From NCBI RefSeq assembly GCF_017348835.2, contig NZ_CP071375.1: 64,000 bases of DNA. One strand, 5' to 3'. Source of the stretch: Escherichia coli. GTDB lineage: Bacteria; Pseudomonadota; Gammaproteobacteria; Enterobacterales; Enterobacteriaceae. Shown here in pieces: positions 2,666 through 55,976 of the stretch; the first letter of the stretch is position 1; the number at the start of each line of letters is the position of its first letter. The notes beneath the pieces are model-generated. The model was not told the origin of the DNA, did no database searches, and was given only the letters and a program-made list of their open reading frames with translations. The position numbers and the translations under genes were made by a program.

Positions 2666-3922
2666 ATGCTCCATCCGCGAGCCAGAACCATGTTGTTATT
2701 ATCGCTCCCCGCCGTGGCAATTGGGATTGCGTCCAGTCTTATTCTGATTGTGGTGATGAAAATCGCCTCGGCATTACAGAATTTGCTCTGGCAACGACTG
2801 CCGGGAACTCTGGGGATAGCCCAGGATTCACCTCTCTGGATCATCGGTGTATTAACGTTAACGGGTATTGCAGTGGGGTTGGTTATCCGTTTCAGCCAGG
2901 GTCATGCCGGACCAGACCCCGCCTGTGAACCGCTGATCGGCGCACCGGTTCCGCCCTCTGCGCTACCAGGACTTATCGTAGCATTAATTCTCGGTCTTGC
3001 TGGCGGCGTCAGCCTGGGGCCGGAACATCCGATCATGACCGTCAATATCGCCCTTGCGGTTGCCATTGGCGCTCGTCTGTTACCGCGCGTCAACCGAATG
3101 GAGTGGACTATTTTAGCCTCTGCCGGAACCATCGGCGCGCTGTTTGGTACACCTGTTGCGGCGGCGTTGATATTTTCGCAAACCTTAAATGGCAGTAGTG
3201 AAGTTCCGCTATGGGATCGTCTTTTTGCGCCGTTAATGGCGGCAGCAGCTGGTGCACTTACTACCGGATTATTTTTCCATCCCCATTTTTCACTGCCCAT
3301 TGCGCATTACGGACAGATGGAAATGACCGATATTCTCAGCGGTGCAATTGTCGCGGCGATTGCCATCGCAGCAGGGATGGTCGCCGTATGGTGCTTACCA
3401 CGGTTGCACGCGATGATGCATCAAATGAAAAATCCGGTGCTCGTGCTGGGTATTGGCGGATTTATTCTCGGTATTCTGGGGGTTATTGGTGGACCAGTTT
3501 CGCTGTTTAAAGGACTGGATGAGATGCAGCAGATGGTGGCAAATCAGGCTTTCAGCACCAGCGATTACTTTTTACTGGCGGTGATTAAACTTACCGCCCT
3601 GGTCGTTGCTGCCGCCAGTGGCTTTCGCGGTGGACGAATTTTCCCGGCAGTGTTCGTCGGCGTGGCATTAGGGTTGATGCTGCATGAGCACGTCCCCGCC
3701 GTTCCAGCGGCAATAACCGTTTCCTGCGCTATTCTCGGCATCGTGCTGGTGGTAACACGCGATGGCTGGTTAAGTCTTTTTATGGCGGCAGTCGTTGTAC
3801 CCAATACCACATTGCTACCGCTGCTCTGTATCGTCATGCTTCCGGCATGGCTGTTATTAGCAGGTAAGCCGATGATGATGGTCAATCGTCCGAAGCAACA
3901 GCCACCCCACGATAACGTTTAA
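2666..3922 (+). CDS. yfeO: ClC-family putative ion-transport membrane protein
   Basis: 418-aa polytopic hydrophobic ORF; conserved position between glk and ypeC. Confidence 0.8.
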
Positions 3923-6077: not shown

Positions 6078-7280
6078 ATGGACCGCGTCCTTCATTTTGT
6101 ACTGGCACTTGCCGTTGTTGCGATTCTCGCACTGCTGGTAAGCAGCGACCGCAAAAAAATTCGTATCCGTTATGTTATTCAACTGCTTGTTATCGAAGTG
6201 TTACTGGCGTGGTTCTTCCTGAACTCCGACGTTGGTTTAGGCTTCGTGAAAGGCTTCTCCGAAATGTTCGAAAAACTGCTCGGATTTGCCAACGAAGGGA
6301 CTAACTTCGTCTTTGGTAGCATGAATGATCAAGGCCTGGCATTCTTCTTCCTGAAAGTGCTGTGCCCAATCGTCTTTATCTCTGCACTGATCGGTATTCT
6401 CCAGCACATTCGCGTGTTGCCGGTGATTATCCGCGCAATTGGTTTCCTGCTCTCCAAAGTCAACGGCATGGGCAAACTGGAATCCTTTAACGCCGTCAGC
6501 TCTCTGATTCTGGGTCAGTCTGAAAACTTTATTGCCTATAAAGATATCCTCGGCAAAATCTCCCGCAATCGTATGTACACCATGGCAGCAACGGCGATGT
6601 CCACCGTATCTATGTCCATCGTTGGTGCATACATGACCATGCTGGAGCCGAAATATGTCGTTGCGGCGCTGGTACTGAACATGTTCAGCACCTTTATCGT
6701 GCTGTCGCTGATCAACCCTTACCGTGTTGATGCCAGTGAAGAAAACATTCAGATGTCCAACCTGCACGAAGGTCAGAGCTTCTTCGAAATGCTGGGTGAA
6801 TACATTCTGGCAGGTTTCAAAGTTGCCATTATCGTTGCCGCGATGCTGATCGGCTTTATCGCCCTGATCGCCGCGTTGAACGCACTGTTTGCCACCGTGA
6901 CTGGCTGGTTTGGCTACAGCATCTCCTTCCAGGGCATCCTGGGCTACATCTTCTATCCGATTGCATGGGTGATGGGTGTTCCGTCCAGCGAAGCACTGCA
7001 AGTGGGCAGTATCATGGCGACCAAACTGGTTTCCAACGAGTTCGTTGCGATGATGGATCTGCAGAAAATTGCTTCCACGCTCTCTCCGCGTGCTGAAGGC
7101 ATCATCTCTGTGTTCCTGGTTTCCTTCGCTAACTTCTCTTCAATCGGGATTATCGCAGGTGCAGTTAAGGGTCTGAATGAAGAGCAAGGTAACGTGGTTT
7201 CTCGCTTCGGTCTGAAACTGGTTTACGGCTCTACCCTGGTGAGTGTGCTGTCTGCGTCAATCGCAGCACTGGTGCTGTAA
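6078..7280 (+). CDS. nupC: nucleoside:H+ symporter (CNT family)
   Basis: ORF 6039..7280 trimmed to ATG at 6078 ([20 protein letters not shown]...) with GGAG RBS at 6069-6072. Confidence 0.9.
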
Positions 7281-43577: not shown

Positions 43578-44939
43578 TCAGAAGAACAGTGACGGATCGC
43601 CCGCCCGTTTGGTCAGGCGACCGTTTGCCATAATGCCCATGCTTTCCAGCCAGCGTTCAAACTCCGGTGACGGGCGCAGGTTGAGTAACTGACGCACAGT
43701 GGCGGTATCGTGGAATGCGGTGGTCTGGTAATTGAGCATGATGTCATCACCCAGCGGCATCCCCATGATGTAGTTGCAGCCTGCGGTGGCGAGCAGGATC
43801 ATCAGGTTTTCGTTGAGGTTCTGGTCAGCGTCAGCGTGGTTGGTGTAACAGCAGTCACAGCCCATAGAGATGCCGCTCAGCTTGCCCATAAAGTGATCTT
43901 CTAAGCCCGCACGAATAATCTGGCGGTCATTGTAGAGATACTCCGGCCCAATAAAGCCGACCACGGTGTTGACGATAAACGGATCGTAATGACGCGCCAG
44001 CCCGTAGTTACGCGCTTCCATGGTCACCTGGTCTGCGCCGTAGTTGGCACCCGCCGACAGCGCCGAACCTTGCCCGGTTTCGAAGTAGAGGCAGTTTTCC
44101 CCGGCGATACGGTTGAACTCTGCACCCACTGCGCGCGCTTCGTCGAGCATCGCCAGTTCCACGCCAAACTCTTTCAGCCCTTTTTCACTGCCACAGATAC
44201 TCTGGAAAATCAGCCCGCCTGGTGCGCCACGACGAATCGCTTCGATCTGGGTGGTGACGTGCGCCAGTACGCAGCCCTGAGTTGGGATGTTGAATTTGTC
44301 GATCACGCCATAGATGGTGTCCAGCACGCGGCTTAAGTTTTCCACGTCGTCAGTTACCGGGTTGACGCCGATCACCGCATCGCCCACCCCGAAGGAAAGC
44401 CCTTCGTAGATTTGCGCGGCGATACTTTGCACGTCGTCACGGGTGTCATTTGGCTGCAAACGGGCGCTAAAGGTGCCCGGAATACCGATGGTGGTATTGG
44501 CCTTTTTGATTACCGGCATTTTCTTCGCGCCGTAGATCAGGTCCGCGTTGGAGCAAATCTTCGCTACCGCCGCGACCACTTCCGAGGTCAGCCCTTTGCG
44601 GGTAAAGGCAATGTCGTCCACGCTGGTTTCATCGCTCAGCACATACTCACGCAGTTCGCTGATGCTCCAGTTTTTAATCTGGTTGTAGGCCGTTTCGTTA
44701 ACATCGTCCTGAATCAGCCGCGTCACGCAGTCATCTTCATAGGCAATCACCGGATTATTGCGGATGTCCGCTACGGTCATTTCCGACAACACCTGCTTTG
44801 CTGCCACGCGCTCCTGTGAGCTTGCCGCTGCAACGCCCGCCAGCACATCCCCCGAACGCAGTTCGTTGGCTTTAGCCAGCACCTCTTTTACATCCTTAAA
44901 CTGATATACATTGCCGAACAATGTGGTCTTTAGTTTCAT
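43578..44939 (-). CDS. eutB: ethanolamine ammonia-lyase large subunit
   Basis: ORF trimmed to MKLKTTLFGNVYQFKDVKEV... start (ATG complement 44937-44939), 453 aa. Confidence 0.93.
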   Translation of the reverse strand: MKLKTTLFGNVYQFKDVKEVLAKANELRSGDVLAGVAAASSQERVAAKQVLSEMTVADIRNNPVIAYEDDCVTRLIQDDVNETAYNQIKNWSISELREYVLSDETSVDDIAFTRKGLTSEVVAAVAKICSNADLIYGAKKMPVIKKANTTIGIPGTFSARLQPNDTRDDVQSIAAQIYEGLSFGVGDAVIGVNPVTDDVENLSRVLDTIYGVIDKFNIPTQGCVLAHVTTQIEAIRRGAPGGLIFQSICGSEKGLKEFGVELAMLDEARAVGAEFNRIAGENCLYFETGQGSALSAGANYGADQVTMEARNYGLARHYDPFIVNTVVGFIGPEYLYNDRQIIRAGLEDHFMGKLSGISMGCDCCYTNHADADQNLNENLMILLATAGCNYIMGMPLGDDIMLNYQTTAFHDTATVRQLLNLRPSPEFERWLESMGIMANGRLTKRAGDPSLFF

Positions 44940-45127
44940 AAGTCGTTCCCTCAGGAAGAAGTGATGAGTGACATTTTTCACAGCCTTCAAACAATTCTAT
45001 TTCATCGTTAACCCTTGTCCTGTAAGGTAATTACCTTAGTACGCCCGCTATTCATCCTGCCGAACGCAACCGAACGCGCCGGATACATGAGCGGGGTTAT
45101 CGAGTCGTTAGATCGAGGTATCCGGTT

Positions 45128-46333
45128 TTGAGCAAGACACCACTGACAGCAAAGGCCATAGAGGCCGCACAACCGCAGGACAAGCCCTATAAACTCACCG
45201 ATTCACAGACACCTGGCCTGTTTTTGCTGGTCCATCCCAACGGCAGCAAATACTGGCGATTCCGGTATTGGATAGACAAGAAGGAGCGGTTACAGGCTAT
45301 TGGGGTGTATCCGCTGATTAGCCTCAAGGAAGCCCGCAAACGCGCCACAGAGAGCCGTTTACTGATAGCCCAGGGAATTGACCCAATGGATTTGGCACGC
45401 AAGGAGAAAGCCATTGATGCTCTTAATGCTATCGCCAGTTTTAAAGCTGTAGCAGAAGACTGGATGGCTACCAAGGTGAGCGGATGGAGTGAGAGCTATA
45501 CAAAGCAGGTCAGATCGGCACTAGAGAAAGATGTTTACCCCGTGCTAGGTAAGCGGTCGATAGTGGATATAACGGCCCGTGACGTGCTGGCGTTACTACA
45601 GAAAAAGGAGCGCACCGCACCGGAACAAGCCAGGAAATTACGCCAGCGTATCGGGGAGATCTTCAAATTTGCCGTTATCACTGAACTGGTTAACCGGAAT
45701 CCGGTTGCAGATCTGGATACGGCACTGAAAGCCAGACGCCCAGGCCATAACGCGTGGATACCGATTAATGAAATTCCGGCCTTCTACAAAGCCCTTGAGA
45801 GAGCTGGGAGCGTTCAGATTCAGACGGCAATACTTTTGCTCATCCTCACAGCTTTGAGGACGGCAGAATTGCGCCTGATGCGCTGGGAATGGGTAGATCT
45901 GCAATCGGCAACAATCACATTGCCCGCTGAAGTCATGAAGGCCCGCCGACCGCATGTTGTCCCGCTATCCCGGCAGGCGGTCGAGCTATTACAGGACCAG
46001 TTTACCCGCAGCGGATACAGTGCTTTCGTCTTTCCTGGCCGATTCATGGACAAGCCACTTTCAGCCAGTGCCATCCTTAAAGCCCTGGAGCGTATCGGAT
46101 ACAAGTCGATAGCCACAGGCCACGGCTGGCGGACCACCTTTTCAACGGCGCTTAATGAGTCCGGCAGGTACTCACCAGACTGGATCGAAATCCAACTGGC
46201 CCACGTTCCGAAAGGCGTGCGCGGTGTTTATAACCAGGCGGCCTACCTGAAGCAACGACGGGCCATGATGCAGGATTATAGCGACTGTATTGATTCAATA
46301 CTGGCTGGTGACGGTAATCCACTTGAACCGTGA
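45128..46333 (+). CDS. intZ: P4-type tyrosine integrase
   Basis: 401-aa ORF (TTG start in the ORF track); N-terminal arm-binding-type domain (DKPYKLTDSQTPGLFLLVHPNGSKYWRFRYW), catalytic region with HGWR and terminal ...GVYNQAAYLKQRRAMMQ tyrosine motif. The symbol is assigned by position only. Confidence 0.85.
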   Translation: MSKTPLTAKAIEAAQPQDKPYKLTDSQTPGLFLLVHPNGSKYWRFRYWIDKKERLQAIGVYPLISLKEARKRATESRLLIAQGIDPMDLARKEKAIDALNAIASFKAVAEDWMATKVSGWSESYTKQVRSALEKDVYPVLGKRSIVDITARDVLALLQKKERTAPEQARKLRQRIGEIFKFAVITELVNRNPVADLDTALKARRPGHNAWIPINEIPAFYKALERAGSVQIQTAILLLILTALRTAELRLMRWEWVDLQSATITLPAEVMKARRPHVVPLSRQAVELLQDQFTRSGYSAFVFPGRFMDKPLSASAILKALERIGYKSIATGHGWRTTFSTALNESGRYSPDWIEIQLAHVPKGVRGVYNQAAYLKQRRAMMQDYSDCIDSILAGDGNPLEP

Positions 46334-46884
46334 ACTATAAGGCCGGGTTTATACTCAATATCGACGGTTGAAGCGCTCAAAAAACAACCGTGACAACCGT
46401 CACAAATATGCAATGTCAATGATCTGAATCAATAAATTGCCAATTCTTCGTTTCCACTTTCGAATGAAAGCAAGATGCAGAAAAATAAATCACCATGAAA
46501 TCATGTACTTATTAATTTTGACCAAATGGTCCAAAATATCCTCGGTGAATCCATGCTTGCCACAGCCAGATGATTAATATTTAACCCATGACTTTCGAAT
46601 GAAAGTAAATTGATAAAAAAGTCAGTGTACACTAACTAAATCGAATATTTTTTGCGCTATGTTTGAATGATAATTGAGCAAAACTTTCGCAAGGTGTGAC
46701 GATGTGAGTAATTAATTTTAACTCTACAATAAACCCATCCCGACAGGGATGGTACCTGGAGCGGAGCGAGAGGGACCATCCCCCTGTTTTTAGTCTTTTG
46801 AAGTTAGTTTTTTAAGGGATTAAATAATTTTGCCTCAAATGAGACCACACCATACAAGGCCAAAAACAATCAGTATTGCGTGGA

Positions 46885-47400
46885 TCAGGCTGGTTTTTTA
46901 ACTATATACCCCGTATGCCAAGGATTCTGATCGCGCGGCATCGGGTCCGCCTTGATAGACTCATAAAACTTATCAGCCATCTCAGCCACAAACTGTACAG
47001 AGGATTCGAACTCAGCGTTTTTGTGTGCGGGAGGAAACCAGAAGTCTAACACGCCAGCATTTCTATTTTTACATACAGCGTATATAAGATAAGCATCAGA
47101 TGTAGGGGTAACTTTTTCGAAACCACCGGGACCATAACGACCAGTAGACCAGTCATCCCAGCATTGTTCTGTCCCGCTATAGCCGTACTGATTGGTATAA
47201 AGACCAATATTTACATGGACTTTACGTAAGTGGATAGGATATACACACGGGGGTTTATGGAAAAGAGTATCCTTTCCAAAATCAGGATGATGTCCATATC
47301 TCCAATGATAAATAAACGAATCCTTAAAGCTCTTTAATTCATCGTTTGTTTTAAACTTATTATCACTGTAGACCTTACCAATAAATTCATTCTGGACCAT
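46885..47400 (-). CDS. YafO-like toxin-family protein (putative toxin of a two-gene module)
   Basis: 171-aa ORF from ATG (complement 47398-47400); motifs DFGKDTLF, PIHLRKVHVNIG, SDAYLIYAVCK, FWFPPAHKNAE and VAEMADKF line up with YafO motifs as I recall them (FGRDALY, HIHL, EAHLVYCQG, KPEPHKLA, MAEAF). Confidence 0.5.
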   Translation of the reverse strand: MVQNEFIGKVYSDNKFKTNDELKSFKDSFIYHWRYGHHPDFGKDTLFHKPPCVYPIHLRKVHVNIGLYTNQYGYSGTEQCWDDWSTGRYGPGGFEKVTPTSDAYLIYAVCKNRNAGVLDFWFPPAHKNAEFESSVQFVAEMADKFYESIKADPMPRDQNPWHTGYIVKKPA

Positions 47401-47734
47401 CAAAGCTTACACTCTTTAAGCGTTCTTCTCGTGAATCGAATAAATCTTTTGATAAATCACACGCTTGTGTGAACGTCATTTTTTTTACTCGTGGTACAGC
47501 CATAGGCGAGGCCGCATTCATCACTTTGTTTTCTTCGTGATCGAGAGTAGCAGTGTAGCGAAACATGACACTTTTACCGCGCACCAACTGGTATCCTAGT
47601 CGATACGCTAACGCGTCAAGATGCGTCAGACGATTTGTTTTACGCAAGCCAGTCATAGCTTTTGGCTTACGAGTGCGCACAGAAAGGGATTTCCCTTCTC
47701 GCTTAGTCGCAAACAAAGTAACTATTTTTGACAT
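47387..47734 (-). CDS. small basic protein, putative partner/antitoxin of the downstream toxin-like gene
   Basis: 115-aa ORF from ATG (complement 47732-47734) with GGAGAT RBS; stop lies 10 bp before the downstream gene start; Lys/Arg-rich N-terminus. Confidence 0.45.
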   Translation of the reverse strand: MSKIVTLFATKREGKSLSVRTRKPKAMTGLRKTNRLTHLDALAYRLGYQLVRGKSVMFRYTATLDHEENKVMNAASPMAVPRVKKMTFTQACDLSKDLFDSREERLKSVSFDGPE

Positions 47735-48706
47735 GGTATCTCCTGACATCAATCTGCTAAGGCCATTGTGCCTTGTTTGAATAGTAAACTATTCGCCCAA
47801 TCTACACCAGTGATTTTCTTGACGCCAATAGTAAAGGCAGCATTGCCCACCACAGGCAGACAATGAGACTTCAGATAGCGCACCTTCTATCGCGCACGCG
47901 CTCAATAAAACCAACGACACCGCCATCCTGCCTGACCGATGTTTTTAACCAGCGTATACAGAGAAACAGACAACAGCATGAAATCAGCGTATATCCAGGT
48001 GCAGACGGCACTATCACACAACGCACAGCAGGCTGAGGTGAACACTCAAGCAACTTTATCCCCGCCACCGACCACCGCAAACTATCATGACCGTGCCAAA
48101 TTCAAAAGGAATGGCCCATATAACGCGATGAACACACATAAGCGCTACACTTGCTTACCTGAAAACTTCACAGCGTCACAGCGCGTTTTAGACACGTTAA
48201 AATTAATGAGATTTCATTAAATTTTCACCAGACACCGGAACAAGCCTATAAATCAAAAATGAATTACCGACATGCGCCGCTGGCGTTCACAGGAAGAATC
48301 AATAACTTAGGCCAATGGCGAAAGTTAAACAAAATCAAGAACTTGCAGAAATGCAGGATGAAGCAGCCGATGTGCCCCGTTGGATTTTACCAGAAGAATC
48401 AACAAGTTAGACTCGGTGATTTCACCGACTCCTGCCGGACTACTGACCAGATCGAACCATTCCCCAAATTTGGGGAGAGCAAACCACACGCAGATCCTGC
48501 CAGGCTATTTCATCCCACCGCATCACGTATTTGCACACTTCCCCGCTGACGTGCTCATTTTGATAACGAGTTACCCGCTAGCCCTTGCCACATCACCATT
48601 TGTCGCGCTTTGACTAAATTAGCGACGTGCCTGTTATAGCGATACGCTAGTTATGCAGAAAGCGCGACATATCCAGCAACCATGCACCCTACAGAGGAAT
48701 TGAATC

Positions 48707-49159
48707 ATGCGAGACATAGACTGGTCAGCTATCCCTTTCGATGATTTACCGCCCTGGCATCTGGACTGGGACGTAGACCAACGCGAAAACGCGACATATC
48801 CAGCAACCACCAGCATTACAGCGATGCGCCCCGTAAAGCCTAAGAAATACCAGGCAACCGACCTGATAGCTCACCTCAAAGCTATTGGCGGCGTATTTAC
48901 CGGAAGCAAAGACACGCTTGCACATGAAGTATGGCCCCGGAAGACGCCAGCGGGTCGAACCGTTTTACGCTTACTGACCGAACTGTCAGACAACGGCGAC
49001 GCTGTAGTGATTAACCGTGGTCGTTGTGGCGTGGAAGTTATTCTGACGCCGAAGAACAGGGCACAGACGCCTGAATTAAGCGCACCCAAGCAAATGCATA
49101 GCCAAAAATTAAGTCCAGCAGAACGCGTTATATCGCTTTTAAATGGCATCGGATTTTAA
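48707..49159 (+). CDS. hypothetical island protein
   Basis: 150-aa ORF with GAGGA RBS 8 nt upstream of ATG; no recognisable family. Confidence 0.5.
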   Translation: MRDIDWSAIPFDDLPPWHLDWDVDQRENATYPATTSITAMRPVKPKKYQATDLIAHLKAIGGVFTGSKDTLAHEVWPRKTPAGRTVLRLLTELSDNGDAVVINRGRCGVEVILTPKNRAQTPELSAPKQMHSQKLSPAERVISLLNGIGF

Positions 49160-49185
49160 TTAATTTTGATGTGGTAATTGCAGGC

Positions 49186-49212
49186 AAAAAAATCCCGCCG
49201 GAGAAAGCGGGG
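49186..49212 (-). terminator. rho-independent terminator oriented for minus-strand transcripts
   Basis: Minus strand reads CCCCGCtttctccgGCGGGattttttt (on plus strand the A-run precedes the hairpin). Confidence 0.55.
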
Positions 49213-49446
49213 AAGTGAAATCAATCGTTGTAGTTATAGATCACATTTTGGAGTTGAGGATGGCTAATCCTCGCTAATATTATCGCGCCGTTATGTGATG
49301 GGCGCAATTATTTCTTACTAATTAAAAGTTTTGTAAATATTACAGAATATCCCTTTTCACTATATGGTAAAAGATGTGAAACAGGGACATGAGGAATATA
49401 ATATTAAGTATCAACAGTAATGTTGGTCTTTAATTTCATTCAGGGC

Positions 49447-49489
49447 GCGGTGAGGGTTTTCTCCATATTTTTCCTCACCGCTACTTTTT
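49447..49489 (+). promoter_or_regulatory. terminator/attenuator-like hairpin in the alpA leader
   Basis: GCGGTGAGG-17 nt loop-CCTCACCGC followed by tacttttt, immediately upstream of the alpA RBS. Confidence 0.45.
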
Positions 49490-49501
49490 CGAGGTGAGAA
49501 C

Positions 49502-49693
49502 ATGAATGATAGCGAATTAATGACGGTGAACGAGGTAGCCGCTTTATTCGGCGTTACCCGTCGGACAATATTCCGGTGGATGAACAAGATTAAAGGCTGG
49601 CCCGTCCCGGTCAGTCCGATTGGCTCAAGAATTAAGTTTATCCGATCTGAGATTTTGGAATTCTATAAAAACAAAGGCGCTCGCCACCAATGA
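49502..49693 (+). CDS. alpA: AlpA-family phage/island transcriptional regulator (excision control)
   Basis: 63-aa ORF MTVNEVAALFGVTRRTIFRWMNKIKGWPVPVSPIGSRIKFIRSEILEF: typical AlpA HTH signature; RBS GAGGTGAG. Confidence 0.8.
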   Translation: MNDSELMTVNEVAALFGVTRRTIFRWMNKIKGWPVPVSPIGSRIKFIRSEILEFYKNKGARHQ

Positions 49694-49832
49694 AAACAGC
49701 TACTGAGATTATCAAATAACCTATTGATTTAAAAAGCTAGCTACCGCAATTTCTGAAGGAATAGGCAGCATGAAAATCAAAGCAAACACAATTAAAGAAA
49801 TAACATCAATCAAAGTAAAAGGAGCAGATGCC

Positions 49833-50096
49833 ATGCATTCATTAGATAGTTATTTTCAGCGCACGACAGCCCCTAAATCAGCCGCCCAGGAACGCCGTGA
49901 GGAATTCCAGGAAAAAGTGATGCGTTCTGCTGATTATATTGCGGACAAGTTCGCGGAAACGGTTCGGCCACTTGTTGATGAAGTAGCTGATAAACTTCAG
50001 TCTGAAATGCCGGAAGACATGGAAGGCACTGCAAAGGCGCGACTCCTTTTTGAATTAAGTCGTCGTTTCGGCGTGTCAATAAGCACTTTTAAATAA
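49833..50096 (+). CDS. hypothetical small acidic protein
   Basis: 87-aa ORF from ATG 49833 with AAAGGAG RBS 8 nt upstream. Confidence 0.5.
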   Translation: MHSLDSYFQRTTAPKSAAQERREEFQEKVMRSADYIADKFAETVRPLVDEVADKLQSEMPEDMEGTAKARLLFELSRRFGVSISTFK

Positions 50097-50113
50097 TCGG
50101 AGGAGGAAAGACA

Positions 50114-50656
50114 ATGGACGCATTTGATGTACTGACAAACAAAGGCGATGAACTGGTAGCACAGCGTGATAAAACCGCCAACGAAGGGGAACGCGCACTG
50201 TTAAATAAGCAGATTAAAGCGATCCGTATGGCCCAGTTTAAATTAATCAGCAATGAAGTTATCGAAAAAATTAAACCGCAGATCCCACAAATCGTTGCTG
50301 ACGCTATTAAAGCCGCCGGACTGGAGAAACGCATTGCCGGGCTGAAAACGAACGCAGAGAAAATGGAGATGCACAAACAGAGCGGTGCTCCGACTCCGGA
50401 TGAGTACTTCTCACCGGATGCTGAGTTTATGGCGCAGGTTGAGGAACGTCTGGGTAGCTGTCTCACCGAGGAACAGTGTCGCTATTTTGATGGAGTGGAT
50501 AGTTCGGCAGGTATTGACCTGAACTCGTATTTCGGTCGTGAAATTGAGCATTTTGATGCCGCCCCGTCTATGCCGGAGCCAGAACCAGAAATGGCCGCCG
50601 ATCCTGAAGCTGAGCAACGGAAACGCGTATTCAATGCGATAGGGATTCGGTACTGA
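50114..50656 (+). CDS. hypothetical protein (phage-associated)
   Basis: 180-aa ORF with strong GGAGGAGG RBS; acidic C-terminus. Confidence 0.55.
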   Translation: MDAFDVLTNKGDELVAQRDKTANEGERALLNKQIKAIRMAQFKLISNEVIEKIKPQIPQIVADAIKAAGLEKRIAGLKTNAEKMEMHKQSGAPTPDEYFSPDAEFMAQVEERLGSCLTEEQCRYFDGVDSSAGIDLNSYFGREIEHFDAAPSMPEPEPEMAADPEAEQRKRVFNAIGIRY

Positions 50657-50664
50657 TCGGATAA

Positions 50665-50688
50665 AAGAAAGCCGGGAATTACCCCGGC
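50665..50688 (-). terminator. hairpin terminator, T-tract on the minus strand
   Basis: GCCGGGaattacCCCGGC preceded on plus strand by ataaaagaaa (minus strand: hairpin then tttcttttat). Confidence 0.45.
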
Positions 50689-50707
50689 TGACTTAACAAT
50701 GTGACCA

Positions 50708-51082
50708 ATGAACAAATCGGACAAGACAAACAGGATAAGCAGTCTCGAAACAATGTTCGGGAACTATATTAGCACAAGTCCGGAGAAAATCATCATGTTG
50801 GCACTACGCATCATGCAGGGCATCGCTAAGACCCTCGCAGAACATGTCTTAGACCTGAAACATTCGCCACTGAGCAAACAGGCCATGAAGCGCCAAACGC
50901 TTCGTCTGTGGGCTGAATATTCGCTTGGAACTATCAATAAAATCATCGACATGAAATCGGGGCCGAGCAACCAGAGCGCGGAGGAAATGGAGTTCATCAG
51001 GCGTTTAATTCTCATTCGCAGAGACATTCATAGCCAGTTACACAGCGTGGGAATCGATATTAATGATGGGACGGGCGATTAA
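50708..51082 (+). CDS. hypothetical protein
   Basis: 124-aa ORF; weak RBS. Confidence 0.45.
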   Translation: MNKSDKTNRISSLETMFGNYISTSPEKIIMLALRIMQGIAKTLAEHVLDLKHSPLSKQAMKRQTLRLWAEYSLGTINKIIDMKSGPSNQSAEEMEFIRRLILIRRDIHSQLHSVGIDINDGTGD

Positions 51083-51120
51083 TTTTCGGACAAGTACTAT
51101 GCGCGCGCGAGGAGCTGAAC

Positions 51121-51351
51121 ATGAAGCAAGATATTGCAGACAGGCTGGAGATACTCGAAGGCCAGCGGGCAGAAGCGAAACAACTACGTAAGCAGGCCAG
51201 AAGAGCGCACAGGAACTACGAAGCAGAATCACTGACCGCTTTCATCAACTTCACAAACCGTTGCATCCTGGAGTGTTACAGGGAGGATGCAGAAAACTGG
51301 CTGGATTCATTGCCAGAACAGACTCTGCATGAACTGAACGGCGACCAGTAA
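51121..51351 (+). CDS. hypothetical small protein
   Basis: 76-aa ORF with GAGGAG RBS 6 nt upstream. Confidence 0.5.
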   Translation: MKQDIADRLEILEGQRAEAKQLRKQARRAHRNYEAESLTAFINFTNRCILECYREDAENWLDSLPEQTLHELNGDQ

Positions 51352-51638
51352 ATAAATCCAGTACGTTTCCCGCAGTGCGCATAACGTACATTATGTGAAA
51401 AACGATATGGATATATATCAGTCTGACTTCAATGAAGAAAACGGACTTCCAGCATCAACCACAAAGAAGTATGGCTAATGCAGCTTTATAAGCCATTGAT
51501 TCTATTAAACGATATTTTTTGTGATTGGTTGAAGCAAACCAAAACACGATGCCACTGAAGCGTTAATAAACTGTTTCAATGTGAAATTATCAGAGTAAAG
51601 AACAATTTGGAGGGTCCGCAAACGCGGATAACAATATC

Positions 51639-53819
51639 ATGAGTGGAAATCTCGGGACCATATACTACGAGGTCGATGCCCGCACTGGGAAACTTCTTAT
51701 CGCGCAACAGCAGGCGGAAGAGGCGTTCGATCGCATTGAACGAGGAGCGCGGAAGGCTGATAGCGGCGTCAAAAAGTTAAATACGCAGATGACTAAAACA
51801 TCAGCCGCAGTCAAAACCAACCTTTCCCCGGCAATCCGTAACGCATCATACCAGATCGCAGACCTTGCCACTCAATTGCAGATGGGCGGTAATGCGCTTC
51901 AGGCGTTCGCTGTGCAGGGTGCGCAGTTATTAGCTGGCTTTGGCACGATGGGCGCGGTAGCTGGCGCGGTGCTGGCTATCGCTGGCGCTATGGGTGGAAG
52001 CCTGGCACAAGGCGCTGATAGTGCAGCCGGATCGGTTGAGTATCTGGACAAGGCGATCACCAAACTGAACGAGGTCATAGCTGTAAATGAACAGGGCGTG
52101 ACGGTGATGAGTGATAGTTACGCCAGACTTTCTAAGGTTAACGCTGAAGTAGCGAAACAGATGCGGAACATGGCTGAAATTCAGGCAATTGCAGCACTGC
52201 GTGACCTGAAAGAACAGGCAAGCCAGGCACAGGGGGAAATGTCGTCATTCTGGCGCAGCTTGCAGGGTGGTAAAGCTGACGCAGCAGCAGCAGCACAGGC
52301 ACTTGATGATCTTGGAATCACAACCAACGACTACAAAGAGGCGATAGCCATACTGAACGCCAATCAGCCGGATACACAGGCGCAAATGGCAACGCTAGCT
52401 AAGTCCGTGATGTACATAGGCGAGGAATACAACCTGACAAACCAGCAAGCCTACGAGTTCATCCGAGCACTAAATAGGGCCGCGACAACGAGAACGCCGG
52501 AAGCCATGCAGGAACTATCGGGCTTCATGCAGGTATTGCTACAGGACACCGAAAACGGTAACGAGGCATTCCGTGAACTGGCTATCAAATTCGTTGATGC
52601 ACAAACCAAAGGCGCAATGCTGGAAGACCAACTAAACCGACTGAAAGGCGCTATCAGTGACGCAGCCACAGAAGCCAGAAACGCCAATTTTACCACTATG
52701 CTCAACACCGTCGCCGCACGCCTGGCAGCCATTGAGCAAGGTTGGGAGGCAGGCGTTAGGATGCAGATGAAAGCCCAGGGCTACACTGAAGAGCAGATCG
52801 ATGAATATGTGAACATGGAAACGGCGTACCGTGATGCAAAAGCCGCTTTGGACGAGAAGAATAAGGCCGACCGTGAAGCTATTGCGCTATCCAAACGCCA
52901 GGCCGCAGAAGCAGCCCGCAAGGCAAAACAGGAAGAAGCTGAAGCACAACGCAAGGCCAAACAGTTAGCCGCGCAGAAGGAGCAGGCAGGACGCTTTACG
53001 CAGCAAGTAATGACGGAATACCTGACGACCGTAGATCCGGCAACAGGCAAGGCGTTTAACCCTGCCGCACAAGTAGAAATGCAGGAGCAGCAGAAGAAAG
53101 CGGCGCTGGATAAATACAGACAGTTGGGCGTCCTGGATGAACAGCAGTACCAGAACACGCTAACCGCCATCCAGAAAACCGCGTCAATGCGCCGCCAGCA
53201 AATCATCAAAGACGAGGCCGACACGTTATTCAACAATCAGCAACAGTTGATCGGCACATTTGGCGATTTCTTCGGTGAACTGTCTGGAGTCATAGCAGAC
53301 GGTGCAGGTGAGCAAAACGCGGCATATCAAGCGCTATTTGCTGTGCAGAAGGGTTTTGTATTGGCATCAGCAGCTTTAAGCCTTCAGAAAGCGCTTGCTG
53401 AGGCAAACGCCTTGCCTTTCCCGGCTAATCTTCCGGCCTATGCGCAAGCTATGTCAGCAGGCACGCAGATCATTTCAGCTATTCGTGGAATAGCTTTCGG
53501 TGGCGGACGCTACAACGGCGGCGCGGTTGGTGCTGGCAACCTGTACCGCGTGGGTGAACACGGTAAGCCTGAGATATTCAAGGCGAACAATGGCAGCCAG
53601 TACATGATCCCAGGTGATAACGGTCGCGTGATAAGTAATCGTGACATTGGCGGCGGTGGCGGCGTAACAATCAACAGCCCGATCACCATTAACACTACGA
53701 ATGGCTTCAGTGATGAAGACTCAAGGCGTCTTGAGGAAGCGATGAAGCGCGTAGCTATGGGCGTTTGCAGGCAGGAGTCAACCAGACCGGGAGGAATGTT
53801 AGCCCCGCGCCGTCGTTAA
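51639..53819 (+). CDS. phage tail tape-measure-like protein
   Basis: 726-aa ORF: glycine/alanine-rich hydrophobic segment (LLAGFGTMGAVAGAVLAIAGAMGGSLAQGADSAAG), long A/Q/E/K-rich coiled-coil middle, C-terminal G-rich region with YRVGEHGKPE motif. Confidence 0.7.
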   Translation: MSGNLGTIYYEVDARTGKLLIAQQQAEEAFDRIERGARKADSGVKKLNTQMTKTSAAVKTNLSPAIRNASYQIADLATQLQMGGNALQAFAVQGAQLLAGFGTMGAVAGAVLAIAGAMGGSLAQGADSAAGSVEYLDKAITKLNEVIAVNEQGVTVMSDSYARLSKVNAEVAKQMRNMAEIQAIAALRDLKEQASQAQGEMSSFWRSLQGGKADAAAAAQALDDLGITTNDYKEAIAILNANQPDTQAQMATLAKSVMYIGEEYNLTNQQAYEFIRALNRAATTRTPEAMQELSGFMQVLLQDTENGNEAFRELAIKFVDAQTKGAMLEDQLNRLKGAISDAATEARNANFTTMLNTVAARLAAIEQGWEAGVRMQMKAQGYTEEQIDEYVNMETAYRDAKAALDEKNKADREAIALSKRQAAEAARKAKQEEAEAQRKAKQLAAQKEQAGRFTQQVMTEYLTTVDPATGKAFNPAAQVEMQEQQKKAALDKYRQLGVLDEQQYQNTLTAIQKTASMRRQQIIKDEADTLFNNQQQLIGTFGDFFGELSGVIADGAGEQNAAYQALFAVQKGFVLASAALSLQKALAEANALPFPANLPAYAQAMSAGTQIISAIRGIAFGGGRYNGGAVGAGNLYRVGEHGKPEIFKANNGSQYMIPGDNGRVISNRDIGGGGGVTINSPITINTTNGFSDEDSRRLEEAMKRVAMGVCRQESTRPGGMLAPRRR

Positions 53820-54317
53820 CCAAATCCCACGCCAGGGGGATAGACTGGCGGCCTTTCAATTCCGTTGAAACGACGGAATCAAACACCCCGATTCAGGGTA
53901 TTTAAACGTCGCGTTTCACGACATTTATCTAAGTCATTGATTTATATTGTAACTCATAATTGAGTTGCGCCGACCATCCCGCCACAAACGCTCCTACGCA
54001 AAAATTCCCTCACAATTACCCTGCCAATTTTCCAGATTTCACGTATACGCGCCTATATCCCCGCCACCGGATACACGCCCGCTTATACCGGATACTTTTA
54101 TGCCATCATTATTAAATCCATTAATAATCATCAAACCATAATTAGCACAACTTATAATCGAACAAAAAACACACAACATTGATAATGATTTTTTCTGGTT
54201 ATACTTATCTAAAAAAGTGGTATGGGAAGTAACTTATTGTTTTGTAATTACAAATTTATTGCGTGGTCAGATGAACAGACTTGCGCACCTCCCGAAAAAC
54301 ACGCGAAAATCGAAGTG

Positions 54318-54427
54318 TTCTTTCTTTTTTTGTTTTTTATTTTTTTATTTTCTCTTTTTCTTCTCTTTCCGGTTCTCTTCTTTTTCTGGTTTTGGTTTTT
54401 TCCTTTTTTATTTTTATTCTTTCTTCA
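54318..54427. repeat. polypyrimidine (T/C) low-complexity tract
   Basis: ~110 bp almost exclusively T and C on the plus strand (tctttctttttttgttttttatttttttattttctc...). Confidence 0.9.
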
Positions 54428-54572
54428 GGGTTGTGATCAAACACACCAAAACATTTTCGCCACAAAAGCGTTAATTTCATCCTGCCAGACCATTCACTTT
54501 CACCGGATACACAGCCGGATATAATCCCGCTAACACCCAGCCACCCAGCATCACGCCTGATAACTACCGTAT

Positions 54573-55976
54573 TCAGGAAGGAAATGCGAGTGATTTCACC
54601 GTCACCGGCACAACCGATCCGCCAAAAAGAGGCGTACCAATGTCGATATAGTCCCCCGCGCGGACAATCACTTCGTCAATGACTGCCAACGGGAGTTGTT
54701 GTAGCTGTGGGCGCAACAACATGCCCAGAGCTTTACCAAAGTCCTGCCCGGCCACCACCAGCAGGGGATGCGGATTCGGAAAACGCGCGACGAAATCGAC
54801 CAACGCGTTGATGACCGTCAGTACCGCGGCGTAACGCACAGGCAGCGAGGCGGGAAGCGCCAGCACGTACGCGTCAGTTTTGGGATCAAGATCCAGCTGA
54901 ATCAGCGCCTGTTGCCAGGCACTCACCAGATCCGTTTCATCAATCGGGATCGCCACCGGCAAATTGCGCAGCGGCAGTTGTACGCCCTCCAGCCAGATTG
55001 TGCTGCCAGAGAGCGAAAGGGTATGTGCACCCGCGCCAATCACCGTGGCGCGTACGGTTTGCGCCGGAAACTGCACGTTCATCTCACGCAGGCGCGGATG
55101 GTCATGCAGCGCCGTTGCCAGAAGCGGGCCAATATCGGCAAAACAGAACGGGTCGGCGGGCTGGTGGCGATAACATTCGCCCACGCCGCCAGAAAGCGTA
55201 ATGATTTCGGGCGTAACACCTGCGGGCAGCAAACCGGTTTGCATTAATGCCTGCGCGAGCGGCGAAAGCGTTCCGTCAATCACTTCGACAATCAGCTCTG
55301 CCATCCGCCAGGTAACCTGCACCAGCTGCGCGCCGGTCAGCGAACGGGCGTCGGTGCCTGCGCCGAAGCACTCATCCACAATCATCTGCCCCGGTTTATG
55401 AGCGTAAACCACGCGCCCCTGGCTGTCGGTTTCCAGCAGGCGACCACCGACGTTGAGGCAGGCAGTGCCGCTGATTTTTCCGGCATCGAACAGGGCGTAG
55501 TTCGCGGTGCCACCGCCGATGTCGATATTCAGTACCCGACACAGCCGTTGTTCAGAAAGGGTTTGCGCCCCGGCACCGTGACCGGCGATCACGGATTCGA
55601 GGTGCGGCCCGGCGCTGGCGACGACAAAATCGCCCAGCGACTGAGAGAGCGCCATCACCGCCGGGCGAGCATTGCGGGTTTTCGCGCTTTCACCGGTGAT
55701 GATGATGGCACCAGAATCAACGCTTTCCGGCGCAATGCCCGCAGCCTGATATTGCTCTAAAATCAGCGATTTCAGTTCCGCTTCTTTTAAACCACCCTGT
55801 TTATCGACAGGGGTAAAGAACACCGGGCTTTGCCAGCTAATTTCGCGTTTGATGAATTCGTAGCGCGGCACCTGCGACACCGCCGCACGGTTAACCAGTT
55901 CCAGGTGGGAGAAAATCACCTGGGTGGTGGTGGTGCCGATATCGATACCGACGCTCAGTAGCTGGCGAGTGTTCAC
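54573..55976 (-). CDS. eutA: ethanolamine ammonia-lyase reactivating factor
   Basis: 467-aa ORF ending ...VTVKSLAFPS; operon context. Confidence 0.9.
   Translation of the reverse strand: MNTRQLLSVGIDIGTTTTQVIFSHLELVNRAAVSQVPRYEFIKREISWQSPVFFTPVDKQGGLKEAELKSLILEQYQAAGIAPESVDSGAIIITGESAKTRNARPAVMALSQSLGDFVVASAGPHLESVIAGHGAGAQTLSEQRLCRVLNIDIGGGTANYALFDAGKISGTACLNVGGRLLETDSQGRVVYAHKPGQMIVDECFGAGTDARSLTGAQLVQVTWRMAELIVEVIDGTLSPLAQALMQTGLLPAGVTPEIITLSGGVGECYRHQPADPFCFADIGPLLATALHDHPRLREMNVQFPAQTVRATVIGAGAHTLSLSGSTIWLEGVQLPLRNLPVAIPIDETDLVSAWQQALIQLDLDPKTDAYVLALPASLPVRYAAVLTVINALVDFVARFPNPHPLLVVAGQDFGKALGMLLRPQLQQLPLAVIDEVIVRAGDYIDIGTPLFGGSVVPVTVKSLAFPS

Follow-up and report, generated by a model that had tools for sequence, protein, structure and literature searches.

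The gene at positions 51639-53819 of the 64-kb stretch of Escherichia coli DNA analysed here (the window) encodes a homologue of phage tape measure proteins (TMPs) and lies in an island of 9,622 bp that splits the ethanolamine operon between eutB and eutA, the site at which strain K-12 carries the cryptic prophage CPZ-55. In sequence, the window is 100% identical to strain PE164. The gene is intact and under purifying selection. A sequence-only reading of the window had called it either the last surviving piece of a decayed prophage or a domesticated fragment; the second description comes nearer the mark, except that the gene appears to belong to a compact mobile element and to serve this element rather than the host. 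On balance, the island is probably a phage satellite of siphophages of the mEp010/ES18 type, one that would build chimeric tails with its own TMP.

On the evidence of its profile matches, the island gene encodes a real TMP homologue. The open reading frame (ORF) starts with ATG and runs for 726 codons to its stop, intact as the sequence-only reading had described it. The family phrog_1538 of PHROG ('tail length tape measure protein') covers residues 1-455 (E=2.8e-103) and phrog_1107 covers residues 412-725 (E=6.7e-58). A profile of the family matches the TMP of the Shigella siphophage Sf11 (gp18, PDB 9occ_M) with E=2e-113, and Sf11 particles have the C-terminal helix of their TMP embedded in the tail tip (PMC12724387). 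Pfam alone would be equivocal, given that TMP_2 gives only a weak match (8e-4). The hallmarks from which a TMP had been proposed are present in the translation, namely a Gly/Ala-rich hydrophobic stretch at about residues 84-125, a charged helical stretch at about residues 400-450 and, towards the C-terminus, two Gly-rich motifs (FGGGRYNGG and IGGGGG).

The closest full-length relatives among 50,697 phage genomes are just 32-36% identical. Homology to the TMPs of mEp010 (782 aa), Sf11 (gp18, 780 aa; PDB 9occ) and ES18 (gp21) extends at the profile level over the whole length, with the window allele about 28-36% identical overall and 50-60 aa shorter. Compared with the mEp010 TMP, identity is 50% in the N-terminal ~50 aa and 63% in the C-terminal ~110 aa. 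Unlike these siphophage genes, the island gene is not flanked by tail-tube, chaperone and tail-tip genes. It does not have the tail-operon position between chaperone and tail-tip or baseplate genes, because no tube, chaperone or tip gene was recognised in the island, whereas in the true prophage L177 and in phage mEp010 the TMP lies within a normal tail operon. That such an operon was clipped by the edge of the window is ruled out, given that both attachment-site (att) repeats and both eut flanks are inside it. As had been noticed from the sequence, the island has no second gene recognisable as a virion gene, nor any for lysis: the nine other ORFs of the island have no match to capsid, terminase, tail, baseplate or lysis families in PHROGs, NCBIfam or PADLOC, the sole exception being a weak match of the 180-aa protein F1 to a 'minor tail protein' family (E=0.011).

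Purifying selection was evaluated, as had been proposed, from the ratio of nonsynonymous to synonymous rates (dN/dS; Nei-Gojobori) in ten class-A alleles drawn from chromosomal islands and circular contigs. The median is 0.095 and the 45 pairs span 0.045-0.165 (median dS 0.36); constraint is seen in all four segments of the gene. The closest protein clusters (89-98% identity) are nearly all of one length, with 118 of the 120 measuring 725-729 aa. Frameshifts or stops in most homologues, which would have spoken for a pseudogene kept by chance, are therefore not what is found, and such a pseudogene is rejected on the grounds of dN/dS and length conservation. In the last 126 codons (53442-53819) the median dS of the class-A alleles reaches 0.93, about four times that of the middle of the gene (0.22), which suggests recombinational exchange of C-terminal modules, the part of the TMP that would face the tail tip.

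In the E. coli regions inspected, at least three allele classes (A, B and C) occupy the same slot, 28-44% identical to one another and all 726-734 aa long. Class B (L004, L009, L012 and L013; L and F numbers are handles for loci and protein families) is ~29% identical to the window allele, which belongs to class A, and class C (L011) is 44% identical. All three have in common with the TMP of mEp010, a temperate siphophage, the first ~50 and the last ~110 residues. The 3' end of the island-type TMP gene is found in about 94 of 5,426 complete genomes.

From an all-against-all comparison of 14 elements, the conserved order is an AlpA-like helix-turn-helix (HTH) gene, an optional HNH endonuclease gene, the core genes F2, F1 and F4, then either the YffO and YffP families or F12, the TMP gene and cargo, the latter including the YffQ, YffS and YffL families. 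This operon recurs in the 14 elements on at least four backbones, and three kinds of gene in them have homologues in mEp010. The YffO family matches small terminases (phrog_1482, 3.7e-11; Pfam Sf6_terminase) and resembles the N-terminus of mEp010_83, the gene before the putative large terminase; it is referred to below as TerS-like. In L011, the TMP gene is only 10 bp away from a tail-completion gene of the HK97 gp10 type that is 43% identical to mEp010_93. In real prophages the gp10-like gene is 3-8 kb from the TMP gene, with tube and chaperone genes in between.

Sister elements also occur as circular contigs of 10.1-11.1 kb without a tyrosine integrase. L167, L168 and L169, contigs from three samples that carry the TMP cluster P0107 (91% identical to the window protein), are circular permutations of one 10.29-kb circle, with 30-bp terminal overlaps in the two Logan contigs; this circle has the same operon and a DUF5906 replicase-like gene, and no integrase. 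Terminal overlaps of 127 bp indicate that L170, which carries a resolvase, and L173 are circles, and L171 and L172 differ in gene order by a rotation. The operon is likewise present, with the TMP absent, in pRHB34-C15_2 (L176), a finished E. coli plasmid record of 9,003 bp.

A profile of F4 finds just 20 representatives in 1.84 billion protein clusters. The most distant relative followed (L178-L180) belongs to another species, whose flanking DNA is just 80-90% identical to E. coli, and has both a different tyrosine integrase and a different insertion site. Homologues of the HTH, F2, F1, F4, TerS-like and YffP-like genes are present in it, and its TMP of 785 aa is 68.5% identical to that of mEp010 over the full length. 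Taken with the circles, this relative indicates that the link between the operon and a TMP of the mEp010/ES18/Sf11 clade survives a change of integrase, replicon, site and host.

Circles and plasmids raise the question of whether the protein has a role outside virions, in a plasmid or integrative element that needs no helper, for example as a membrane- or periplasm-spanning protein used in maintenance, in DNA uptake or export, or as a toxin. Such a role would suit the replicase-like or resolvase genes of the sister plasmids and circles that lack an integrase, the small core proteins without phage homologues and the narrow distribution of the family. Nonetheless, we consider it improbable, given that conjugation or mobilisation genes are not seen in any variant, that the TerS-like, HNH and HK97 gp10-like genes carried alongside are specific to virion assembly or packaging, and that the parts of the TMP which are conserved are exactly the tail-docking termini.

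Similarity searches set the small core genes apart from those of phages. Among 50,697 phage records, no DNA match was found for the 2.2 kb that comprise HTH, F2, F1, F4 and F12, no protein match for F1, and no match for the 10.29-kb circle. A search of 5.8 billion sequences found F1 just in Escherichia/Shigella and in one partial Salmonella contig. F1 looks like a disordered multivalent binder without homologues outside the element family. Its acidic C-terminal half carries repeated short motifs (PDEYFSPD, YFDGV and IDLNSYF), which are present in more copies in longer relatives. No informative match to F2, F1, F4, F12 or the 150-aa and 121-aa ORFs came from PHROGs, NCBIfam or PADLOC. AlphaFold2 predicts a confident three-helix bundle for F4 (predicted local distance difference test score, pLDDT, 88.9) and a helical model for F2 (pLDDT 77.8); for both, Foldseek returned only generic helical matches in PDB and BFVD (E >= 0.1).

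Complete prophages containing the gene, which the sequence-only reading had expected to reveal what was lost, were searched for in the E. coli regions examined (5,426 genomes), 50,697 phage records, IMG/VR and ~100,000 species, and none with the TMP and its neighbours was found. In IMG/VR and in a set of ~100,000 species with one genome apiece, the shared C-terminal motif turned up solely in ordinary phage or prophage contexts, and no island-like context was seen outside Escherichia; the distant relative described above came later, through the F4 profile.

These results bear on the proposal that the gene is the last intact piece of an otherwise decayed prophage, kept by chance or recently orphaned. 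The K-12 island is catalogued as a cryptic prophage, the window island has no other virion gene, and some copies are decaying: intZ of L002 has an internal stop, L010 is interrupted by insertion sequence (IS) elements, and K-12 has lost the TMP by deletion. However, a dN/dS of ~0.1 at a dS of ~0.36 and a length kept in 118 of 120 clusters are at odds with decay, as are the identical operon order across different integrases, replicases and sites, the absence of a complete prophage with this backbone from every collection searched, and a gp10-like gene that abuts the TMP gene in an island when true prophages have it kilobases away. The proposal is thus very unlikely and largely refuted.

Conservation extends to the flanking non-coding sequence. 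Immediately upstream of the ATG, ~100 nt of leader (51540-51638) are more strongly conserved than the TMP coding sequence itself, with a mean column identity of 81% among elements that share just 28% identity in their TMPs. The stem of the leader hairpin (TCCGC/GCGGA) is invariant and variation is confined to its loop; this hairpin would draw a Shine-Dalgarno-like GGAGG nearer to the ATG. Shuffled sequence folds as well as the 101-nt leader does (z = 0.41), which leaves the local hairpin alone as credible, and Rfam has no match anywhere in the island. A 13-nt motif (TAAGYYATTGATT) occurs in four copies in the window, all inside the island (0.25 expected); nine relatives have it ~150 nt before the TMP start, with 1-4 further copies downstream. 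This motif may be an operator or promoter element.

After the gene, the sequence-only reading had seen only ~750 bp of non-coding DNA. This holds in so far as the 753 bp 3' of the TMP stop (53820-54572) have no convincing gene, with RefSeq placing there one minus-strand ORF of 47 aa across a pyrimidine-rich tract. Even so, the segment is more than junk DNA: related elements conserve some 234 bp of it from the stop onwards, the first ~45 nt being invariant in every element, and likewise its last ~87 bp. A scan for consensus promoters and terminators was uninformative (3 promoter-like sites vs 12.7 expected). The conserved leader and trailer speak for a controlled expression of the TMP.

The relation to CPZ-55 is close. 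The K-12 element has the same integrase and site as the window island and the same 8-bp duplication after eutA, both site and duplication having been described for it previously (PMC6379469). It retains YffM, homologous to F4, and YffO, homologous to the TerS-like protein, together with YffP, YffQ, YffS and YffL. The TMP is lost, and the AlpA-F2-F1 genes are also gone. The window has a fuller form than CPZ-55, with F12 replacing YffO and YffP. Between yffP and yffQ a 65-bp remnant of the post-TMP segment persists, 92% identical (L006, MG1655 2556500-2568500, locus 6677-6741). With this remnant and the loss of AlpA-F2-F1, CPZ-55 looks like a deletion derivative of a TMP-bearing element, that is, a TMP-deleted member of the family. 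The literature searched treats CPZ-55 only as a cryptic prophage and the yff genes only as uncharacterised, and no link to satellites or to a TMP was found there.

The features of the island and its flanks are collected in Table 1. Within the island, the order is intZ, the YafO-like gene and its partner on the opposite strand, the 150-aa ORF, and then HTH, F2, F1, F4, F12 and TMP.

Table 1. Features of the island and of its flanks, in window coordinates.
Feature	Position	Strand	Remarks
eutB	43578-44990	-	island flank
attL core, 8-bp direct repeat TCAGGAAG	44951-44958	.	just upstream of eutB start; copy at the other island end
intZ, intact tyrosine integrase, 401 aa	45128-46333	+	PHROG phrog_1 integrase, E=8e-69; RefSeq intZ
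YafO-family toxin-like gene, variable cargo	46885-47403	-	RefSeq annotation
121-aa partner gene overlapping the YafO-like gene	47387-47752	-	RefSeq annotation
13-nt motif TAAGYYATTGATT, copy	48297-48309	-	one of the four copies has a mismatch
150-aa ORF (family F15)	48707-49159	+	also in L007 and the circular element L170
AlpA/excisionase-like HTH, 63 aa (family F0)	49502-49693	+	heads the rightward operon; phrog_66 'excisionase and transcriptional regulator', 1.7e-9; TIGR01764
13-nt motif TAAGYYATTGATT, copy	49717-49729	+	
Core gene F2, 108 aa, helical	49770-50096	+	in 13/14 elements compared; missing from K-12 CPZ-55
Core gene F1, 180 aa	50114-50656	+	N-terminal part helical; D-L-x-x-Y-F-like motifs recur in the acidic region that follows
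Core gene F4, 95 aa, K-12 YffM family	50795-51082	+	predicted three-helix bundle (AlphaFold2 pLDDT 88.9)
F12, 76 aa	51121-51351	+	fills the slot of the TerS-like (YffO family) and YffP-like genes of sister elements
TMP leader	51489-51638	+	13-nt motif TAAGCCATTGATT at 51489-51501; inverted repeat TTTCA-ATG-TGAAA; GGAGG, then TCCGC/GCGGA hairpin before the ATG
13-nt motif TAAGYYATTGATT, copy	51489-51501	+	
TMP gene, 726 aa, allele class A	51639-53819	+	PHROG, PDB profile match, dN/dS
Conserved segment 3' of TMP	53820-54053	+	hairpin CGCCAG...CTGGCG at 53830-53850, then second hairpin and second motif copy
13-nt motif TAAGYYATTGATT, copy	53930-53942	+	
Pyrimidine-rich, internally repetitive tract (~115 nt)	54319-54434	+	family D1, right arm of island
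Conserved attR-proximal arm	54486-54572	.	cross-element comparison
attR core TCAGGAAG	54573-54580	.	overlaps eutA stop codon
eutA	54573-55976	-	island flank

The AlpA-like HTH gene is present in all variants, and its relatives match Pfam HTH_17. The left arm of the island varies, with YafO-like toxins, YffL and other genes, and other island variants have other genes at the cargo position 46885-47752. In L008 (8255-10762), an AIPR (abortive-infection) gene and a neighbour are inserted between F12 and the TMP gene. By gene content, the element seems to have cargo hotspots like those of known satellites. The right arm with the pyrimidine-rich tract is also found in L004, L009 and L174, islands that bear other TMP alleles. 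As inserted, the island separates eutB from eutA within the ethanolamine-utilisation operon (43578-55976).

Two further genes of sister elements were noted. In the circular element L173, a gene at 3384-3881 for a cyclophilin-type peptidyl-prolyl isomerase of 165 aa (Pfam Pro_isomerase) separates F4 from the TerS-like gene. The periplasmic chaperone FkpA is a prolyl isomerase. DNA injection by HK97 is reported to depend on the TMP and on FkpA (Cumby et al. 2015). In L009 (20-340) and L178 (10311-10628), a protein of ~106 aa is encoded upstream of the TerS-like gene; over its first 23 residues it is 48% identical (E=4e-5) to the N-terminal end of mEp010_84, the putative large terminase, and it may mimic a terminase interaction peptide.

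The island has the general traits of a satellite, in that it is compact (9.6 kb), has an integrase, an AlpA-like regulator, att repeats and few virion genes, and is a recurrent unit. A link to a helper is indicated indirectly by the TerS-like, HNH, gp10-like and TMP genes of the family, homologous to those of mEp010, and by the circular contigs. In the satellite reading, the helper would be a siphophage of the mEp010/ES18/Sf11 type, whose replication would activate the island through the AlpA-like regulator. The island would then excise through IntZ and its DNA would be packaged into helper capsids, a step that variants with TerS-like and HNH genes would redirect themselves. The island TMP would compete with or replace that of the helper, its conserved N-terminal ~50 aa and C-terminal ~110 aa docking into helper tail-tip and tube assembly, and its divergent middle and slightly shorter length would give rise to chimeric tails. 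The gain for the island could be that its own transfer is aided, for instance by evading factors that target the helper TMP, or that the yield of the helper is depressed, or both. A satellite of this kind would have kept from the virion programme only the genes that bias packaging and tail assembly.

In its wider form, which we regard as evenly poised, this proposal makes the CPZ-55 family a so far unrecognised class of Escherichia satellites, made up of IntZ islands and ~10-kb circles, that would remodel the tails of mEp010/ES18-type helpers with their own TMP; some members would add a small terminase, an HNH protein and a tail-completion protein, and K-12 CPZ-55 would be a degraded satellite and not a degraded phage.

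The same docking of TMP termini could serve a different end. As a decoy for interference or defence, the island TMP would poison the assembly of tails by an invading or resident siphophage, its termini entering the tail-tip initiator complex and its foreign middle leading to dead tails. The population would be protected or the helper yield lowered, and the TMP would not be needed for transfer of the island. This alternative is serious and compatible with the satellite reading. In its favour, the termini are in common with phage TMPs and the middle is divergent, and the islands carry cargo of a defence type (the YafO-like toxin and the AIPR gene). Moreover, blocking tail assembly is a known defence of prophages and of phage-inducible chromosomal islands (PICIs), where Tab targets the TMP (PMC10884400) and Tai acts on tail assembly (PMC11364771), and PLE11, a satellite of Vibrio cholerae, also restricts phage tail assembly via its TMP (PMC11838301). 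Nonetheless, we judge it rather unlikely. A length of 726-734 aa across alleles 28% identical and purifying selection over the whole gene fit a working ruler better, the linkage with TerS-like, HNH and tail-completion genes points to particle formation, and PADLOC gives no match.

Several points weigh against the satellite reading as well. TerS-like, HNH and replicase-like genes, present in its sisters, are missing from the window island, which may be a non-autonomous or partly reduced member of the family. No candidate helper prophage is found within the 64-kb window, the only part of the source genome that was searched. No tail assembly chaperone was recognised beside the TMP gene, either by PHROG and NCBIfam or by AlphaFold2 and Foldseek on F4 and F2, and the element is absent from IMG/VR. 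As for the circular contigs, they may represent plasmids instead of packaged DNA. K-12 CPZ-55 formed no circular DNA under the stresses tested (bioRxiv 10.1101/2024.07.17.603846), this being a degraded copy. Induction by a helper, excision, replication and packaging are only inferred for this island, as is the incorporation of its TMP into virions, which we propose by analogy with the PLEs of V. cholerae.

If the satellite reading is correct, remodelling of tails by satellites extends to E. coli and to siphophages, a genetically tractable setting; satellite-encoded TMPs have been demonstrated only recently, in the V. cholerae PLEs acting on a myophage. One of the nine 'cryptic prophages' of K-12, along with yffL to yffS, would be reinterpreted, and the TMP alleles, which differ by exchanged middles but keep their termini, would form a natural series that could help to tell the parts that dock at the tip from those that only measure length. 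Even without the satellite model, a 2.2-kb phage structural gene under strong purifying selection in a 10-kb element needs explaining.

Among known systems, the Gram-negative PICIs of the EcCICFT073 type resemble the island in their size of ~10 kb, their integrase, an AlpA-family regulator that heads a rightward operon, and their defence cargo; PICI-like genes for packaging redirection (TerS-like and HNH) are present in the sister elements. By the marks used for PICIs, the window island has the integrase and the AlpA-family activator. It lacks a primase or replicase, with no match for any window ORF and DUF5906 just in the episomal relative L167, and it lacks TerS or Rpp, F12 standing in that slot without a family match. 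Its small core proteins have no homologues detected outside their own family. Capsid-forming PICIs (cf-PICIs) carry capsid, portal and protease genes, which the window island does not have; some cf-PICIs are reported with putative tmp genes (PMC12987554, Extended Data Fig. 10). The EPIPs, satellites of the Mycolicibacterium prophage HerbertWM, are ~11 kb long, bear a TMP and alter tail lengths according to a preprint (bioRxiv 10.64898/2025.12.02.691453); they differ in their actinobacterial host, a serine integrase, extra capsid and connector genes, and unrelated sequences.

The PLEs of V. cholerae are the sole experimentally established precedent for a satellite TMP. All PLEs encode a TMP and a chaperone, and their TMPs are built into chimeric tails, that of PLE11 replacing the TMP of phage ICP1; deletion of tmp cuts transduction by ~99.9% (PMC12987554; PMC11838301). 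Their helper, ICP1, is a lytic myophage, whereas the TMPs related to that of the island belong to temperate siphophages of the mEp010, ES18 and Sf11 type. The PLEs encode a chaperone for tail assembly and frequently also a baseplate hub, neither of which is found in the island, and their integrase, replication genes and all other genes are unrelated to those of the island. What the two have in common is the design of a small element without capsid or tail-tube genes that carries its own TMP, somewhat shorter than that of the known or proposed helper and related to it.

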